Positions 2-53,453 of a stretch of DNA of 64,000 nt are shown one piece after another. The notes beneath the pieces were generated by a model that searched no databases, was not told the DNA's origin, and saw only the letters and a program-made list of their open reading frames with translations. Position 1 is the stretch's first letter; each line of letters opens with the position of its first letter. Origin of the DNA: Thermoanaerobaculia bacterium (lineage in GTDB: Bacteria > Acidobacteriota > Thermoanaerobaculia > Multivoradales > UBA5704); contig JBIOUG010000010.1 of the NCBI GenBank assembly GCA_044866775.1, forward strand, positions 9,052 to 73,051. The letters are read 5' to 3'. The position numbers were made by a program, and so were the translations under genes.

Positions 2-24440
<24,439 letters not shown>

Positions 24441-24513
24441 ACGCGCGAGGCGCGGGGGCGACCGACGGCCGGCGAAGGCACCTGCAAACTCGCCGCAAAC
24501 CTGTCCCAAGGCT

Positions 24514-24544
24514 GGAGGTTAGCGGCACTTGGAGGTTGGCGGCA
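24514..24544 (+). promoter_or_regulatory. Tandem direct repeat GGAGGTTAGCGGCA / GGAGGTTGGCGGCA (17-bp period) upstream of ORF2
   Basis: Two 14-mers with 13/14 identity at 24514-24527 and 24531-24544. Confidence 0.25.
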
Positions 24545-24625
24545 TGCTTCCGGTTCGAAGAGCGAGGACGCCCGCGCCGCAGTCTGAAACGGGCCAGGAC
24601 TCGGTGTCTGTTCCTAATCTTTTGC

Positions 24626-24639
24626 GCGGCATGCCGCGG
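24626..24639 (+). promoter_or_regulatory. Perfect 14-bp palindrome CGCGGCATGCCGCG, about 35 bp upstream of the ORF2 start, next to the AT-richer stretch TTCCTAATCTTTTG; candidate operator or promoter element
   Basis: The sequence is self-complementary. It sits in the only AT-richer patch of the 24347-24672 intergenic region. Confidence 0.3.
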
Positions 24640-24672
24640 CCCTCATAAAGCGCAAGGTCGGAGGTGGCGTCG

Positions 24673-30780
<6,108 letters not shown>

Positions 30781-30788
30781 AGGCGGGG

Positions 30789-48311
<17,523 letters not shown>

Positions 48312-48677
48312 GCGGGCACACGCAGCGCTCGCTGCACAGCTCTCTCTCCAGCGCCGGACATCGTAGAAAGAACGAGGGGCGGGCCAGGCTGCCGACTCCC
48401 CGCCGACGCGCGAGACGCGCGGGTGAAGAGTCACGCGCGACTTTCTTCACCGGTTTTGTCCCCCTAAAGGCCGCTTGCCGCACCTATCAGACGTCTAGGG
48501 GCACAGGAGAGCTTCGATGGCGGCGGACGACGTCACGCGCGGACGGCTAAGTGCCGGCATCACAGTGATTTGGCGAGGGCATCACGCCTACGCGAATAGT
48601 GAACATTACATGCGGCCTGGATCCGGGGCCGATTTCTGATCTTTCGCGCAACCATCCAACCGCAAAGGAGGGTTTCT

Positions 48678-50450
48678 TTGGACAAACCACAGGACCACGA
48701 GGAGTCGAATCCTGAGCTGGACCTCAACCGCCGGCAGTTCCTCGGCGGGGTCGGCGGCGTCACCGCGACACTGGCGGGCGGCCTGACCGGCATCTCCGCG
48801 CTCTCCGGCCTGACGAGCGAGGAGGGGGTGGCGGAGGCCGCTCTCATCGGCCCGCTGAGCCCCGCGGACCGCGCCAGCGAGGCGAAGGCGATCCGGAAGG
48901 AGGCGGCCGATGCGGAGAAGGCGCTCGGCGTCCCCGCGACGCCGACCAACGGCGACGAGGAGACGTACACCAACTTCATCGGCAACTACCACAAGTGCCT
49001 GCCGCACGACAGCATCACCGGTCTGGTCGATCCGGCGGCGTACAACGCGCTCACCGGGGCGATCCAGATGGGCACGTTCGCGGCCTTCGACGCGGTGCCG
49101 CTGGGCGTCCCGAACCAGAATCGGCTGCTGAACCCGCTCGGCGCCAACGCCTTCGGCATGGCCGGCCCGGACGCGCAGGCGGTCGGCACGCCGGCGCCGC
49201 CGTCGGTGGCCAGCGCCGCCCTCGCGGCCGATGCCGCCGAGGTCTACTGGATGGCGCTCGCCCGCGACGTCTCCTTCGCCGACTACGGCACCTCGTCGGT
49301 CATCGCCGACGCCTGCGCGGACTTGAACAACCTGCCGGGCTACGCCGGCCCCAAGGACCCGAGCACCAACCTGGTCACGCCGCAGGTGCTGTTCCGCATG
49401 AACTCCCCGGGCGTTCTCGACGGCCCGATGGTGTCGCAGTTCCTGCTCCGCAACTGGGTCTTCGACGCCTCGACGATCACGCCGTTCGTGATCACCTCGC
49501 TGCCCGGCGAGGACTACATGACGCAGTGGAACGAGTGGCTGGCGATCCAGAACGGGGCGTTTGCGGTCGGAGGGCTCAACCCGATCCTCGACGGCACGCT
49601 GCGCCTGCCGCGCAACGCCCGCGACGTCGGCATGGTCTCGGCCTTCGACCGCGTGTACACGATCTACCTGCGCGCGGCGCACATCCTCCAGAACTTCTGC
49701 AACTTCAGTACGGGCGCCAACTGCGACCTCGCGCACCCCTACCGCAACACCACCAAGCAGGCCGGCTTCACCACCTTCGGCCTCGCCTGGCTGTTCGAGA
49801 ACCTGGCCTCCGTCGGCCGCTCCGAGCAGAACACCTGGTGGTCGAAGTGGAACGTGCACCGCTTCGTGCGGCCGGAGGAGTACGGCGGGCTCGTGCAGAG
49901 CAACCTCGCCGACGGCGCGTCGCACCCGATCCACAGCGACCTGACGAGCGTCTCGACCGTGCTGCCGCGGATCTTCGCCGCCAACGCGGCGCGTAATGCG
50001 GCACGTGGCCTCAGCGGCGGCGGCACGTACCTGCTGTCGCAGGGGCTGCGCAGCGGCTGCCCGGCGCACCCGTCGTTCCCCGCCGGCCACGCCTTCTCGG
50101 CCGGCGCCTGCGTGACCTTCCTCAAGGCGTTCGTCCTCGAGACGCGCATGTGGACGGGGGTGCTGCCGACGGTCAAGCCGAACGCCGACGGCACGGCGAC
50201 CGTGCCGTACGTGGTCGGCGTCGACGGGCCGGCGCTCACGCTCGTCGGCGAGCTCAACAAGCTGGCGCACAACCTGACCTACGGCCGGAGCATGATCGGC
50301 ATCCACTTCCGGGCCGACAACGACGCCGGCCTACTCCAGGGCGAGGAGGTGGCGATCCGCACCCTGCGCGAGCAGATGGCCACCTACCCCGAGCCGTTCA
50401 CCGGCTTCACGCTCACCAAGTTCGACGGCACGACGATCGTCATCTCCTGA
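48678..50450 (+). CDS. Vanadium-dependent haloperoxidase-like protein (PAP2 / acid-phosphatase superfamily) with a twin-arginine (Tat) signal peptide; TTG start
   Basis: 590-aa ORF with a TTG start preceded by AAGGAGGG (48663-48670). The N-terminus NRRQFLGGVGGVTATLAGG is a Tat motif. The conserved vanadate/phosphate-binding motifs are present: KWNVHRFVRPE (KxxxxxxRP-like), PSFPAGHAFSAG (PxYPSGHA-like) and LTYGRSMIGIHFRADND (RxxxGxHxxxD). Confidence 0.65.
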   Translation: MDKPQDHEESNPELDLNRRQFLGGVGGVTATLAGGLTGISALSGLTSEEGVAEAALIGPLSPADRASEAKAIRKEAADAEKALGVPATPTNGDEETYTNFIGNYHKCLPHDSITGLVDPAAYNALTGAIQMGTFAAFDAVPLGVPNQNRLLNPLGANAFGMAGPDAQAVGTPAPPSVASAALAADAAEVYWMALARDVSFADYGTSSVIADACADLNNLPGYAGPKDPSTNLVTPQVLFRMNSPGVLDGPMVSQFLLRNWVFDASTITPFVITSLPGEDYMTQWNEWLAIQNGAFAVGGLNPILDGTLRLPRNARDVGMVSAFDRVYTIYLRAAHILQNFCNFSTGANCDLAHPYRNTTKQAGFTTFGLAWLFENLASVGRSEQNTWWSKWNVHRFVRPEEYGGLVQSNLADGASHPIHSDLTSVSTVLPRIFAANAARNAARGLSGGGTYLLSQGLRSGCPAHPSFPAGHAFSAGACVTFLKAFVLETRMWTGVLPTVKPNADGTATVPYVVGVDGPALTLVGELNKLAHNLTYGRSMIGIHFRADNDAGLLQGEEVAIRTLREQMATYPEPFTGFTLTKFDGTTIVIS

Positions 50451-50475
50451 TCCGCCGCGATCACGCGGCTCTCGA

Positions 50476-50512
50476 GGGGTGGCCCCTGGGGCTGGGGCCA
50501 CCCCCTTTTTTT
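50476..50512 (+). terminator. Rho-independent terminator after the haloperoxidase-like gene (probably bidirectional with the convergent rlmL-like gene)
   Basis: Perfect 11-bp stem GGGGTGGCCCC (50476-50486) / GGGGCCACCCC (50494-50504), 7-nt loop, followed by TTTTTTT at 50506-50512. Confidence 0.85.
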
Positions 50513-50519
50513 GCTTCCG

Positions 50520-51683
50520 TCAGTAGAGATCGAACACCAGGATCCGCGCTTCGAGCGGGCCGTTCCACACCGGGATGCGCCGGCGGGGGCGAAGGCCGAT
50601 GCCTTTGCCAAGAGCCGGACCGCCGGCGAGGACGGCGGCCTGCCAGCCGGCGAAGCGGCGCTTGAGCAGGTCACCGAGGCGCCGCCACTGCTCGGCCGCG
50701 CCGGCGAGCCGCTCGCCGTGGGGCGGGTTGACGACCACGAGGCCGGGACCGTCCGCCGGCGGCTCCAGCTCGAAGGCGTCGCCACGCGCCAGCCGCGCGC
50801 GCTCGGCGAGCCCGGCCCGCGCGAGATTGGCGCCGGCGGCGCGCAACGCCTCGGCCGAGGTGTCCACACCCAGCAGACGCAGGCTCTCGGCACCGGGTGC
50901 CCGGAGCGGCTCGGCGCGGACTGCCGCGAACGCCTCCGCGGCGAACCCGGGCAGCCGCTCGAAGGCCCAGCCCCCGGCCCCCGGCTCGGCCCGCAGCGCC
51001 CCCGGCGGACGGCCGAGAGCGAGCCATCCGGCTTCGACCAGGAGCGTCCCCGAGCCGCACATCGGATCGACGACCGGCCCCGCGCCGCTCCATCCCGAGG
51101 CCAGCACGCAGGCCGCCGCAAGCTGCTCGCGCAGCGGCGCCGCGACCGAGGCGACACGGTAGCCCCGGCGATCGAGCGGCTCGCCCGAAGTGTCCAGCAA
51201 GAGGGTGGCGCGGTCGTGGTGGAGGCGCAGCCGCAGCGCCAGGTCGGGGCGCTCGCGGTCGACGGCCGAGCGGCGGCCCCAGCGGTCGCGCTGGCCGTCG
51301 ACCAGGCCGTCTTTCACCTTGAGCGCCGCCCACTGCGGGTCGCGCACGGCCGAGCCGGCGACGCTGGCGCGCACGGCGAGGCTGCGCGCCGGGTGGAGGA
51401 GCGCGACCAGCTCCTCGCGCTCTGCCGTGACGACGGCACCCGCGGCGAGCGCGCGTGCGCCGGCGGCGAGCGCGTCGCCGTCCGGCGCGTCCCAGGCGGC
51501 GATCTCGACCAGCACCCGGTTGGCGGTACGCAGCCGCCAGTTGGCGCGCCAGCAGTCTTCCCAGGCGCCGCGGAAAGAGACCGCGCCGCGCTCGCGGGCG
51601 AGGTCGCGCGCCCCGAGCGCGGCCAGCTCGCCCGCCAGCAGCTCCTCGAGACCGAGACCGCAGGTGGCGACGAGGTCGAGCAT
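50520..51683 (-). CDS. rlmL: THUMP-domain class I SAM-dependent rRNA methyltransferase (RlmL-like, 23S rRNA m2G family)
   Basis: 387 aa. The N-terminus CGLGLEELLAGELAALGA resembles the RlmL THUMP N-terminus. SAM motif VVDPMCGSGTLLVEAG. Catalytic motif VVVNPPHGERL (NPPY-like). Confidence 0.65.
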   Translation of the reverse strand: MLDLVATCGLGLEELLAGELAALGARDLARERGAVSFRGAWEDCWRANWRLRTANRVLVEIAAWDAPDGDALAAGARALAAGAVVTAEREELVALLHPARSLAVRASVAGSAVRDPQWAALKVKDGLVDGQRDRWGRRSAVDRERPDLALRLRLHHDRATLLLDTSGEPLDRRGYRVASVAAPLREQLAAACVLASGWSGAGPVVDPMCGSGTLLVEAGWLALGRPPGALRAEPGAGGWAFERLPGFAAEAFAAVRAEPLRAPGAESLRLLGVDTSAEALRAAGANLARAGLAERARLARGDAFELEPPADGPGLVVVNPPHGERLAGAAEQWRRLGDLLKRRFAGWQAAVLAGGPALGKGIGLRPRRRIPVWNGPLEARILVFDLY

Positions 51684-51762: not shown

Positions 51763-52332
51763 ATGGACGCAGCCTGTTCACCGGCGGTCAGCCGGATGAT
51801 CGAGCAGTGGCGCGAGACGGTGCGCGGCGGCGACGTCGACGCCATCACGCGCCGCATCAAGCGAGACCTCAGCGAGCAGATCCGGGGCGAAGGGGTGGAG
51901 CTGCCGCCGGCCTACCGCCACACGCTTCCCGACCACTACGCGCGGCGCCTCCTCTACCGCGATCCCGAGCTGCCGCTCACCGCGGTGGTCATGGCCTGGG
52001 CGCCCAGCCAGCAGACGCCGCTGCACGACCATTCGGGGATCTGGTGCGTCGAAGGGGTGGTGGAAGGGGAGATGGAGGTCGTCCGCTTCGAGCTGCTCGA
52101 GGAGTGCGGCGGCCGATGTCGCTTCGGCGAGTTCGAGCGCCTGCGGGCCGGCACCGGCTCGGCAGGGGCGCTGATCCCGCCGCTCGAGTACCACGTCCTG
52201 CGCAATCCCACCGGTCGCACCGTCATCACTCTCCACGTCTACGGCGGCGAGATGGACCACTGCGGCGTCTTCGTGCCGCAGCCGGACGGGAGCTGGCGGC
52301 GCGAGGAAAAAGCCCTCTCCTACACCGACTGA
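51763..52332 (+). CDS. Cysteine dioxygenase type I (cupin)
   Basis: 189 aa. Metal-binding PLHDHSGIWCVEG (3-His site HxH plus the conserved Cys). A second cupin motif EYHVLRNPTG...TLHVYGG (His/Tyr) is present. Arg in YARRLLYRD is consistent with an Arg-type true CDO. Confidence 0.7.
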   Translation: MDAACSPAVSRMIEQWRETVRGGDVDAITRRIKRDLSEQIRGEGVELPPAYRHTLPDHYARRLLYRDPELPLTAVVMAWAPSQQTPLHDHSGIWCVEGVVEGEMEVVRFELLEECGGRCRFGEFERLRAGTGSAGALIPPLEYHVLRNPTGRTVITLHVYGGEMDHCGVFVPQPDGSWRREEKALSYTD

Positions 52333-52352: not shown

Positions 52353-53453
52353 ATGGCTTCGCCGGCGATCCCCACCGGGAAGAGCCCCGACCTCCGCGTC
52401 TGCCAGGAGGAGCCGTTCAACGCCGGCCCACCGGCGGCCCGCCTGCTGCGCACGGTCGTCACTCCGACCGACCTCTTCTTCGTCCGCAGCCACGCGCCGG
52501 TGCCGCGCATCGACGTCCAACGCTTCCGCCTCACCGTCGAAGGTCTGGTCGAGCGGGCGCTCTCGCTCACCGTCGACGACCTGCGCCGCAACTTCTCGTG
52601 GGTGTCGCTCGAGGCCACCCTGGTCTGCGCCGGCAACCGGCGGAGCGAGCTGCTGCAGGTGGCGCCGATCCCCGGCGAGCTGCCGTGGGGGATCGAGGGG
52701 GCGAGCAACGCCCGCTGGGCGGGAGCGCCGCTCGCCGAGGTATTGACCGAGGCCGGCGTGCTCCCCGAAGCGCGGCACGTCGGCTTCACCGGTCTCGACC
52801 GGGTGGAGCGGCACGGGAGCCGCTTCGGCTTCGGCGGCTCGGTGCCGCTCGCCAAGGCGCTCGGGTCCGAGGTCCTCCTGGCCTACGAGATGAACGGCGA
52901 GCCGCTCACCCCGACGCACGGCTTTCCGCTGCGCGCGCTGGTGCCCGGCTTCTTCGGCGCCCGCAGCGTCAAATGGCTGTCGCGGGTCGAGGTGCGGCTC
53001 GAGCCGTCGGACAACTATTTCCAGACCCGCGCCTATCGCCTGGCGCCGGCAGCCGACGGCGGACCCGAGGGCGTGGACTGGCTGCGCGCCGTGCCGCTCG
53101 GCGAGATGCCGGTCAACTCGATCATCTGCGACCCCGGCGACGGCGCCGAGGTGCCGGCCGGGCGGCTCACGGTCGCCGGCTGGGCAATCGCCGGCGGCGG
53201 CCGCACCGTCGAGCGCATCGACCTCTCGGGCGACGGCGGCCGCACCTGGACCCGCTGCGAGCTGCTGCGCAGCGACCCCTGGTCCTGGTGCTTCTGGGGG
53301 GGCGAGGTGGAGCTCCAGCCCGGGCGCCACACGCTGGTGGCGCGCGCCCTCGACTCGGCCGCCCAGCTCCAGCCGGAGCGGCTGGAGAGCGTCTGGAACG
53401 CCAAGGGCTACGCCAACAACGCCTGGCACCGGGTTACGGTAACGGCGGTCTAG
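52353..53453 (+). CDS. Sulfite oxidase-family molybdopterin oxidoreductase (Oxidored_molyb plus Mo-co dimerisation domain)
   Basis: The ATG at 52353 is in frame within the spurious long ORF 50511-53453. The Mo-ligand cysteine motif LVCAGNRRSE is present. GFPLRALVPGFFGARSVKWL is typical of sulfite oxidase / YedY-like enzymes. No signal peptide is evident. Confidence 0.75.
   Translation: MASPAIPTGKSPDLRVCQEEPFNAGPPAARLLRTVVTPTDLFFVRSHAPVPRIDVQRFRLTVEGLVERALSLTVDDLRRNFSWVSLEATLVCAGNRRSELLQVAPIPGELPWGIEGASNARWAGAPLAEVLTEAGVLPEARHVGFTGLDRVERHGSRFGFGGSVPLAKALGSEVLLAYEMNGEPLTPTHGFPLRALVPGFFGARSVKWLSRVEVRLEPSDNYFQTRAYRLAPAADGGPEGVDWLRAVPLGEMPVNSIICDPGDGAEVPAGRLTVAGWAIAGGGRTVERIDLSGDGGRTWTRCELLRSDPWSWCFWGGEVELQPGRHTLVARALDSAAQLQPERLESVWNAKGYANNAWHRVTVTAV

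Follow-up and report, generated by a model that had tools for sequence, protein, structure and literature searches.

A 64,000-nucleotide stretch of DNA from a Thermoanaerobaculia bacterium of the phylum Acidobacteriota (contig JBIOUG010000010.1), hereafter the window, carries a gene that very probably encodes a vanadium haloperoxidase (VHPO) and that lies directly downstream of a hybrid nonribosomal peptide synthetase-polyketide synthase (NRPS-PKS). Its best matches in sequence and in predicted fold are the vanadium bromoperoxidases (VBPOs) of algae and cyanobacteria, its N-terminus resembles a twin-arginine translocation (Tat) signal, and its place behind a megasynthase is kept in related genomes. 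We propose, with about even chances of being right, that this algal-type VHPO gene has been conserved as an accessory in one family of acidobacterial clusters of the NRPS-PKS type and that its product would halogenate the exported product of the cluster in the periplasm. The protein family and its annotation, the cluster-encoded VHPOs of Streptomyces and the secreted VHPOs of other bacteria are known already; new relative to the searchable literature is a Tat-signal, algal-type VBPO whose gene is conserved at the end of an acidobacterial NRPS-PKS cassette and has a conserved promoter-like element of its own.

The haloperoxidase and its vanadate site

The features of the gene and of its product are the following (ORF, open reading frame; A1, an alignment of 24 homologues):

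48665..48672, + strand: Shine-Dalgarno sequence AAGGAGGG, 5 nt ahead of the TTG (sequence inspection)
48678..50450, + strand: haloperoxidase gene, 590 aa, TTG start (ORF list; phmmer, profile and fold matches)
48678..48839, + strand: predicted Tat signal peptide, residues 1-54 (conserved positions, motif, disorder in the model)
49845..49871, + strand: vanadate-site motif 1, Lys390...Arg398 (HMMER alignment to 1QI9; invariant in alignment A1)
50067..50090, + strand: vanadate-site motif 2, His464, Ala469, Gly470, His471 (HMMER alignment to 1QI9; alignment A1)
50286..50306, + strand: vanadate-site motif 3, Arg537...His543 (HMMER alignment to 1QI9; both invariant in alignment A1)
50476..50512, + strand: intrinsic terminator closing the haloperoxidase transcript (hairpin fold and T-run)

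The original prediction, made from the letters of the window, had described a TTG-started gene with a strong Shine-Dalgarno sequence, and both were found as it had given them, in the ORF list and by reading the sequence. The G+C content of the region is 70-75% and several spurious ORFs overlap the haloperoxidase ORF; because long ORFs arise by chance at such a composition, the reality of the gene rests on homology. The GGAGG ahead of the start is kept in homologous loci.

A phmmer search of the PDB gave VBPO I of Ascophyllum nodosum (1QI9) as the top match (E = 1.4e-90, residues 59-586), with ~36% identity over ~530 residues, followed by AnVBPO II, the Corallina VBPOs and the Acaryochloris VHPO. 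When a profile of the 24 homologues was used against the PDB, the significant matches (E = 1.7e-139 to 4.8e-106) were all VBPOs; up to E<=10 the sole others were three antibody heavy chains (E = 0.4-0.7), and neither NapH1 nor the Curvularia chloroperoxidase nor any PAP2 phosphatase appeared. The AlphaFold (AF2) model, with a mean pLDDT of 76.8 and residues 1-59 disordered, gave a similar picture in Foldseek, where the first twelve chains were all VBPOs (E = 2.5e-37 to 1e-24, TM 0.65-0.77) and 1QI9 was found at E = 2.5e-37 with TM 0.73/0.77. NapH1 and NapH3 (3W36, 8CXL) followed at E ~2e-3 with TM ~0.2, 1VNC at E = 1.1, and acid phosphatases at E = 0.1-0.5 over ~100 residues only. The Pfam PAP2 model scored 16.2 bits, below its threshold of 27.2. 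One source labels a homologue "phosphoesterase", and others use "vanadium-dependent haloperoxidase".

The haloperoxidase-like identity first proposed for the protein is borne out by these searches, in which VBPOs rather than PAP2 phosphatases are the best matches by sequence, profile and fold. By the same sequence and model comparisons, the enzyme is placed in the algal VBPO clade and not in the Streptomyces NapH1/Mcl24 clade; the comparison first drawn with the napyradiomycin and merochlorin enzymes thus pointed to another clade, whose structures (3W36, 8CXL) are absent from the sequence and profile matches.

The canonical vanadate ligands are Lys, Arg, Ser, Gly, His, Arg and His, which at the anion site of CiVCPO are Lys353, Arg360, Ser402, Gly403, His404, Arg490 and His496 (PMC10278073, PMC9144378). 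The three signatures reported earlier are in the translation (KWNVHRFVRPE at residues 390-400, PSFPAGHAFS at 465-474 and GRSMIGIHFRADND at 536-549), as is RRQFLGG at residues 18-24 near the N-terminus. Counted along the HMMER alignment to 1QI9, Lys390 is equivalent to Lys341, Arg398 to Arg349, His464 to His411, Gly470 to Gly417, His471 to His418, Arg537 to Arg480, and His543 to His486, the vanadate-binding His; Trp387, three residues ahead of Lys390, is equivalent to Trp338. Lys390, Arg398, Gly470, His471, Arg537 and His543 are invariant across the 24 homologues, and across the family the mapped site residues show little or no variation, position 469 excepted. Of the full ligand set named earlier for checking, the alignment to 1QI9 supplies Lys, Arg, Gly, His, Arg and His but not Ser, and the middle signature is non-canonical, with Ala469 in the place of the PSGH Ser, which in CiVCPO (Ser402) and AnVBPO (Ser416) forms a hydrogen bond to vanadate. 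The Ascophyllum and Curvularia enzymes, which are able to chlorinate, likewise have Trp at the third residue ahead of the catalytic Lys, where Arg is found in the Corallina and Acaryochloris enzymes, which only brominate (PMC11871015); halide preference cannot be called from the sequence of the window protein.

Compared with the algal and cyanobacterial VBPOs (1QI9, AnVBPO II 5AA6, Corallina 1QHB and 1UP8, Acaryochloris marina 5LPC), the window protein has the same fold and belongs to the same family; with 1QI9 it shares the ligands Lys, Arg, Gly-His, Arg and His, and with the Ascophyllum enzyme also the second-shell Trp (Trp338/Trp387; PMC11871015) and an extra His (His411/His464). It differs from the algal enzymes in being bacterial, in its 54-residue Tat-type signal, in the change of Ser416 to Ala, and in the setting of its gene, which lies inside an NRPS-PKS cluster, whereas the algal genes stand alone or are tandemly amplified.

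Bacterial enzymes of this kind had been called rare, a view that does not hold for this family. Relatives were found in at least 530 species-representative genomes when an alignment was the query of the genome-collection scan; such a query was needed, and the same scan with the single protein returned no relatives. The hosts belong to Acidobacteriota, Bacillota, Myxococcota, Planctomycetota, Chloroflexota and Proteobacteria, together with one archaeal metagenome-assembled genome, and at E<=1e-30 the family comprises 790 clusters at 50% identity. The VHPOs of Thermoanaerobaculia have been noted before as the closest bacterial relatives of the brown-algal VHPOs (PMC11765636).

Linkage to the NRPS-PKS megasynthase

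Three synthetase genes, which form two paralogous assembly lines (ORF1, and ORF2 with ORF3), precede the haloperoxidase gene on the same strand. Their domains are given below as A, adenylation; C, condensation; T, thiolation; KS, ketosynthase; AT, acyltransferase; TE, thioesterase; KR, ketoreductase; DH, dehydratase; and ER, enoylreductase.

20..24346, + strand: ORF1, NRPS-PKS truncated at the window edge, more than 8108 aa (Pfam)
24664..30780, + strand: ORF2, NRPS of 2038 aa: A with FkbM-type methyltransferase, T, C, A, T (Pfam)
30789..48311, + strand: ORF3, hybrid megasynthase of 5840 aa: four C-A-T modules, then KS-AT-T-TE (Pfam; orthologues in related loci)
44502..48311, + strand: final non-reducing PKS module and thioesterase of ORF3, KS-AT-T-TE with no KR, DH or ER (Pfam; translation)

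The stop codon of ORF3 at 48311 is followed by a 366-nt intergenic gap and then by the haloperoxidase gene. To either side of the homologous genes, flanks of 10 kb were inspected, and in all ten contexts with homologues of 50-74% identity the gene is immediately preceded, on its own strand, by an NRPS or NRPS-PKS megasynthase (loci L002-L011 and L087-L092), so that the association with an NRPS-PKS cluster, claimed at first for the window, extends to all contexts of the clade that were examined. The upstream synthetase ends in KS-AT-T-TE in nine of the ten; in L008 to L011 (L087 to L089), L091 and L092 its end reads C-A-T-KS-AT-T-TE and is orthologous to that of ORF3 (50-55% identity).

How far this linkage argues for a functional tie depends on what else is conserved around it. 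Around the nearest homologues, at 74, 66 and 62% identity, the arrangement of the window recurs on both sides, with the synthetase upstream and housekeeping genes downstream (rlmL, a cupin, a sulfite-oxidase-like Mo enzyme, terC, a glyoxalase, RNase D, murJ and a TonB receptor). Taken alone, these loci show no more than common descent. In the homologues of 50-58% identity, from Holophagales and other Acidobacteriota, downstream synteny is lost and a megasynthase still lies directly upstream. The downstream neighbour varies by lineage: rlmL in the lineage of the window and elsewhere a duplicated MacB/FtsX ADOP-like permease in either orientation, an FG-GAP/ASPIC gene, a second haloperoxidase or hypothetical genes. 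Homologues below ~49% identity have no NRPS within 10 kb, with the exception of a sister clade (L017, L018, L021), in which the gene faces an operon of an NRPS (C-A-T-TE), a small ORF, a MacB-like permease and an ABC ATPase. The synthetase-linked enzymes all fall into one clade of a neighbour-joining tree. A single origin, with the linkage kept down to ~50% identity and through several changes of neighbourhood, is therefore good evidence for cluster membership, and we consider it likely that the gene is a member of the cluster.

Three further observations concern the related loci. A duplicated MacB_PCD/FtsX permease of ~820 aa (ADOP-like) is encoded at L087 11832-14294, L088 11836-14304, L089 11896-14352, L090 15976-18441 and L018 13515-15944, and could be a product exporter or an immunity pump; no ADOP/MacB-type permease was found in the 64-kb window. 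L091 has two nearly identical tandem haloperoxidase genes (7919-9691 and 10001-11770) 3' of the thioesterase, with the promoter-like motif described below ahead of the second only. The upstream C-A-T-KS-AT-T-TE coding sequence is split over several frames or called genes in L091 (~583-7713) and L092 (~2-9752), which indicates either frameshifts of long-read assembly or decaying clusters.

Export and the proposed action on the cluster product

The N-terminus carries N-R-R-Q-F-L-G at residues 17-23 (RRQFLGG at residues 18-24), followed by a weakly hydrophobic core rich in Gly, Ala and Thr, with a mean Kyte-Doolittle hydropathy of 1.14 over residues 24-46; A52-E53-A54 is the likely signal-peptidase site. 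Residues R18, R19, L22, G23 and A54 are the sole conserved positions among residues 1-58 of alignment A1, homology to mature VBPOs starts at residue 59, just past the predicted signal, and RRxFL is present in 100 of 101 full-length homologues. Homologues from Gram-negative phyla carry the twin-arginine motif and those from Bacillota are without it. These features make Tat export of the haloperoxidase probable, and in a diderm acidobacterium such export would place the enzyme in the periplasm; within the 64-kb window no tat genes were found. Secreted bacterial VHPOs, a few of them with Tat signals, have already been described (PMC11312541). Cluster association together with Tat export had been singled out as unusual, and of this pair export alone is not new; our literature search found no report tying acidobacterial VHPOs to NRPS-PKS clusters.

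The Bacillota homologues (L027, L032, L037, L053, L059, L062, L064, L065, L073, L080 and L081) have a short, Lys-rich, hydrophilic N-terminus followed by a conserved Cys-x-I-G-P, which suggests that they are located differently, in the cytoplasm or in association with spores.

If the enzyme serves the cluster, it would be exported in folded form via Tat to the periplasm and would bind vanadate at His543. With H2O2, a peroxovanadate would form and would oxidise halide to a hypohalite-level species, the halide being most likely Br- or I-, with Cl- possible given Trp387 and His464 as in the Ascophyllum VBPO. This species would in turn halogenate the exported peptide-polyketide, most probably at the activated C-2 of a 3-oxoacyl terminus (1,3-dicarbonyl or tetramate-like). 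The reactive halogenated form would then be made only outside the cytoplasm, and the producer would be protected. Whether the enzyme acts on the cluster product at all we judge to be evenly balanced, and the 1,3-dicarbonyl as the site of halogenation is a tentative assignment.

The expected target follows from the end of the assembly line. The final module of ORF3 has the KS Cys/His/His motifs (TACSTS, EAHGTG, KTNLGH), GHSIG with HAFH, as in malonyl-type AT domains, in its AT and GASMG in its TE; from its sequence, the module predicts a 3-oxoacyl (1,3-dicarbonyl) product end. Adenylation codes read by hand point to Gly, Thr, Ala and Ser, with two further domains being Lys2-like. No aromatic residue is predicted, so the soft carbon nucleophile that first suggests itself would be the C-2 methylene. 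Among carbon nucleophiles, HOBr made by VHPOs reacts preferentially with beta-dicarbonyls (PMC11106770). A similar target is found in the bromoform route, in which beta-dicarbonyls are brominated by the A. marina VHPO in engineered microbes (PMC11106770), but that route is unselective, with fatty-acid intermediates suggested (PMC11106770), whereas here the substrate would be a hypothetical dedicated NRPS-PKS product in the periplasm.

Several observations weigh against this proposal. No H2O2-producing enzyme was seen in the cluster. Ser416 of 1QI9 is replaced by Ala469 (codon 50082-50084), every solved VHPO among the sequence and profile matches has Ser at that position and none is of the Ala type, and vanadate affinity or activity could differ with Ala469. 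The Tat claim of the original prediction is affected by the profile scores, which lie below threshold (PF10518, 15.4 against 22.7 bits; TIGR01409, 10.5 against 16.7). In L090 the upstream NRPS ends in C-A-T, not in KS-AT-T-TE, and with a single origin part of the persistence of the linkage could be block inheritance of the cluster. The gene has a promoter-like element and a terminator of its own, and its regulation may be separate from that of the synthetase. Moreover, algal-type VHPOs are regarded as unselective makers of free hypohalous acid (PMC12615548, PMC11106770), and a dedicated substrate is therefore not required.

Two of these points are softened by the family itself. At position 469, 116 of 120 homologues were scored, with AGH in 101, SGH in 13 and SVH in 2, and Ser is retained in the cluster-linked relatives P0019 and P0024. 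Since both types coexist within the cluster-linked clade, Ser and Ala appear interchangeable, and this distribution suggests that the family tolerates the change; our literature search found no report on an S402A mutant. As for export, the Tat models reach E<=0.05 in only 2 of 24 family members and are uninformative for the whole family, and because such short models are weak, we let the motif evidence, kept family-wide, outweigh their scores.

Other VHPOs with a role in metabolism offer partial parallels. NapH1, NapH3 and NapH4 of napyradiomycin and Mcl24 and Mcl40 of merochlorin biosynthesis in Streptomyces are likewise encoded in clusters and presumed to tailor the product, but they are of another clade and their clusters are meroterpenoid clusters rather than NRPS-PKS. 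The window protein may work like these NapH1/Mcl24-type tailoring enzymes without membership of their clade, and we know of no report that the Streptomyces cluster VHPOs are exported by Tat. The VHPOs that brominate alkyl quinolones (HZ11-VHPO, esVHPO and lpVHPO; PMC11312541) likewise have N-terminal secretion signals, mostly Sec and in a few cases Tat; they are proposed to act outside the cytoplasm, and one comes from an acidobacterium (PMC11312541). Their genes show negligible synteny and no co-localisation with clusters (PMC11312541), whereas cluster adjacency is the rule here.

Enzymes of the latter kind lead to a different account, possible but doubtful, in which the exported haloperoxidase is a general weapon or signal modifier that works through diffusible HOBr or HOI or on foreign molecules, and shares the cluster because both are antagonistic. 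Bacterial VHPOs that are secreted and attack exogenous quorum signals have been documented (PMC11312541), free hypohalous acid is released by algal-type enzymes (PMC11106770), and the gene comes with a promoter-like motif and a terminator of its own. In addition, most homologues, those below ~49% identity, have the same Tat motif and no adjoining NRPS, and an exported stand-alone function is therefore probably ancestral. This account does not readily explain why the gene directly adjoins a megasynthase on the same strand in 10 of 10 contexts with its other flank varying, nor why the sister clade, too, adjoins an NRPS-TE-permease operon; the alkyl-quinolone VHPOs, in contrast, are explicitly not co-localised with biosynthetic clusters (PMC11312541).

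It is unlikely that the enzyme tailors the product without leaving a halogen in it, be it by cryptic halogenation followed by elimination, cyclisation or decarboxylation, by halide-independent peroxidation of the sulfoxidation type, or by a rearrangement like that of NapH3. Non-halogenating VHPO homologues exist (NapH3, PDB 8CXL, is among the Foldseek matches), oxidations of non-native substrates with recycling of the halide are driven by VHPOs (cited in PMC12615548 and PMC13061610), replacement of Ser by Ala at the anion site could tune the chemistry, and a 3-oxo acid terminus would decarboxylate readily after alpha-halogenation. The catalytic set for halide oxidation is nevertheless intact, including the acid-base His471 and Lys390, and the sequence holds nothing that separates such chemistry from ordinary halogenation.

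That the protein is a secreted PAP2-like phosphatase hydrolysing phosphate esters in the periplasm, or an inactive relic, is very improbable: haloperoxidases and PAP2 acid phosphatases share an active-site architecture, phosphatases appear at low rank in Foldseek, the Pfam PAP2 match is weak, one homologue bears the phosphatase-like name given above and the Ser-to-Ala change might weaken vanadate binding, but the best matches across the ~530-residue mature protein are exclusively bromoperoxidases, PAP2 phosphatases are not seen by sequence or profile even at E<=10, and strong conservation across hundreds of homologues speaks against a relic. Compared with PAP2/class A acid phosphatases (Escherichia blattae 1D2T, PhoN), whose scaffold it shares and whose KX6RP and RX5HX3D motifs it contains, the window protein has the VBPO helical architecture in full and is ~2.5 times larger. 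Phosphatases conserve the PSGH Ser as strongly as VHPOs do, and its loss therefore does not favour phosphatase function. The secreted acid phosphatase first offered as an alternative was reached only by fold comparison, at Foldseek E ~0.1-0.5, and is unlikely.

To return to halogenation of the cluster product, a more daring version of it, which we regard as a long shot, is halogenation as activation. A harmless 3-oxo acid or tetramate peptide would be exported, its methylene would be halogenated in the periplasm by the VHPO, and the product, perhaps after decarboxylation, would be a peptidyl alpha-halomethyl ketone warhead. If this were true, the electrophilic warhead would never be present in the cytoplasm of the producer; it would give NRPS-PKS biosynthesis its first halogenation step in the periplasm and the algal-type bacterial VBPOs their first assigned metabolic substrate, and it would amount to a natural route to protease inhibitors resembling halomethyl ketones.

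Even the plainer proposal has wider implications. The bacterial VHPOs tied to pathways so far are the Streptomyces meroterpenoid enzymes, and a cluster-locked clade in uncultured Acidobacteria would provide a concrete substrate hypothesis for the algal-type bacterial family, hitherto without an assigned metabolic role. It points to a phylum of almost unexplored chemistry as a source of peptide-polyketides that are halogenated or halide-dependent, and the tailoring step would lie outside the cytoplasm. For biocatalysis, the clade would offer robust exported bromoperoxidases with a possible native substrate. Given the kinship to the brown-algal VHPOs (PMC11765636), the native role also bears on what was passed to algae.

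Regulation and further features of the window

The promoter-like element occurs twice in the window:

48457..48483, + strand: bipartite motif TGTCCC-N17-GCAC, 195 nt ahead of the haloperoxidase start codon (intergenic alignment of relatives; pattern scan)
24502..24528, + strand: second TGTCCC-N17-GCAC copy, 135 nt ahead of ORF2 (pattern scan)

Its consensus is TGTCyC-N17(18)-GCAC, with TGTCyCGCT-N13-mGCAC as a fuller form. In 1.62 Mb of loci, 16 of the 19 exact matches lie 124-270 nt upstream of cluster-linked haloperoxidase genes. With a spacer of 17 or 18 nt, the motif precedes every such gene (in the related loci at L002 2468, L003 9843, L005 9848, L008 9816, L087 9802, L088 9795, L089 9824, L090 9877, L091 9824, L092 9796 and L013 99), the first of the two tandem copies in L091 excepted, and it was absent ahead of the unlinked homologues in the fetched loci. 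It occurs once per locus, ahead of the haloperoxidase gene only, apart from the extra copy before ORF2 in the window, where both strands together hold exactly two exact matches against 0.38 expected. The intergenic regions before ORF2 and before the haloperoxidase gene align as paralogous; because the region was duplicated, the second copy is not independent and gives weak support for co-regulation of the whole cluster. Two boxes with a fixed spacer of 17 non-conserved nucleotides look like an alternative-sigma promoter of the extracytoplasmic function (ECF) type, and the element may be such a promoter or else an operator. No sigma-70 consensus was found in 48000-51000. A hairpin at 48613-48631 was considered as a terminator between ORF3 and the gene and was not counted, its T-tail being poor. 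Since there is neither a sigma-70 consensus nor a convincing terminator between the two, read-through from ORF3 is possible. An Rfam scan of 48200-50700 gave nothing meaningful, and a riboswitch or conserved RNA leader was set aside, as conservation across lineages is limited to the bipartite motif and the Shine-Dalgarno sequence.

At the other end of the gene, the terminator described originally as a textbook case is confirmed as a strong one. Its 11-bp stem with 10 G-C pairs (50476-50504) is followed by the T-run CTTTTTTT, its fold energy is -39.7 kcal/mol (z = -3.0), and it sits between convergent genes, an rlmL-like gene occupying 50520-51683 on the minus strand. An equivalent strong hairpin with a T-run lies 3' of the gene in L002, L003, L005, L087, L088, L091 and L092. 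With strong terminators after it in most lineages, the gene is therefore read as the unit that closes the cluster, under a conserved control element of its own. Beyond the convergent rlmL-like gene lie a cupin gene with a weak cysteine-dioxygenase-like match (51763-52332) and a gene for a sulfite-oxidase-family Mo enzyme (52353-53453); this pair is kept only in closely syntenic relatives and is probably housekeeping, outside the cluster.

The architecture of the megasynthases points to a duplication. Residues 2105-5840 of ORF3 are 65.6% identical to residues 4440-8108 of ORF1, so that the two are paralogues, and each is ~65% identical to the single upstream synthetase of relatives. The ~130 nt after the two stop codons are ~85% identical (intergenic regions 24347-24663 and 48312-48677), and the very large tandem duplication therefore took in the 3' flank. 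The Pfam domains of ORF1 include an embedded sulfotransferase and a methyltransferase, with KS-AT-T-TE at its end, as in ORF3.

Some domains of these proteins stand out. In one adenylation domain of ORF3 (residue ~2945, ~39621 onward) and one of ORF1 (residue ~2635, ~7922 onward), LAHDPLHRDVF takes the place of the usual FDxS core; such domains resemble the Lys2/alpha-aminoadipate-reductase type. The Sulfotransfer_3 domain lies between modules of ORF1 (residues 1690-1903, ~5087-5728) and is found likewise in the orthologous synthetases of L003 and L004; in-line sulfation, or sulfation followed by elimination, would be unusual within an NRPS. The FkbM-type methyltransferase of ORF2 is inserted after its first, Ser-like adenylation domain (residues 552-741, 26317-26886).

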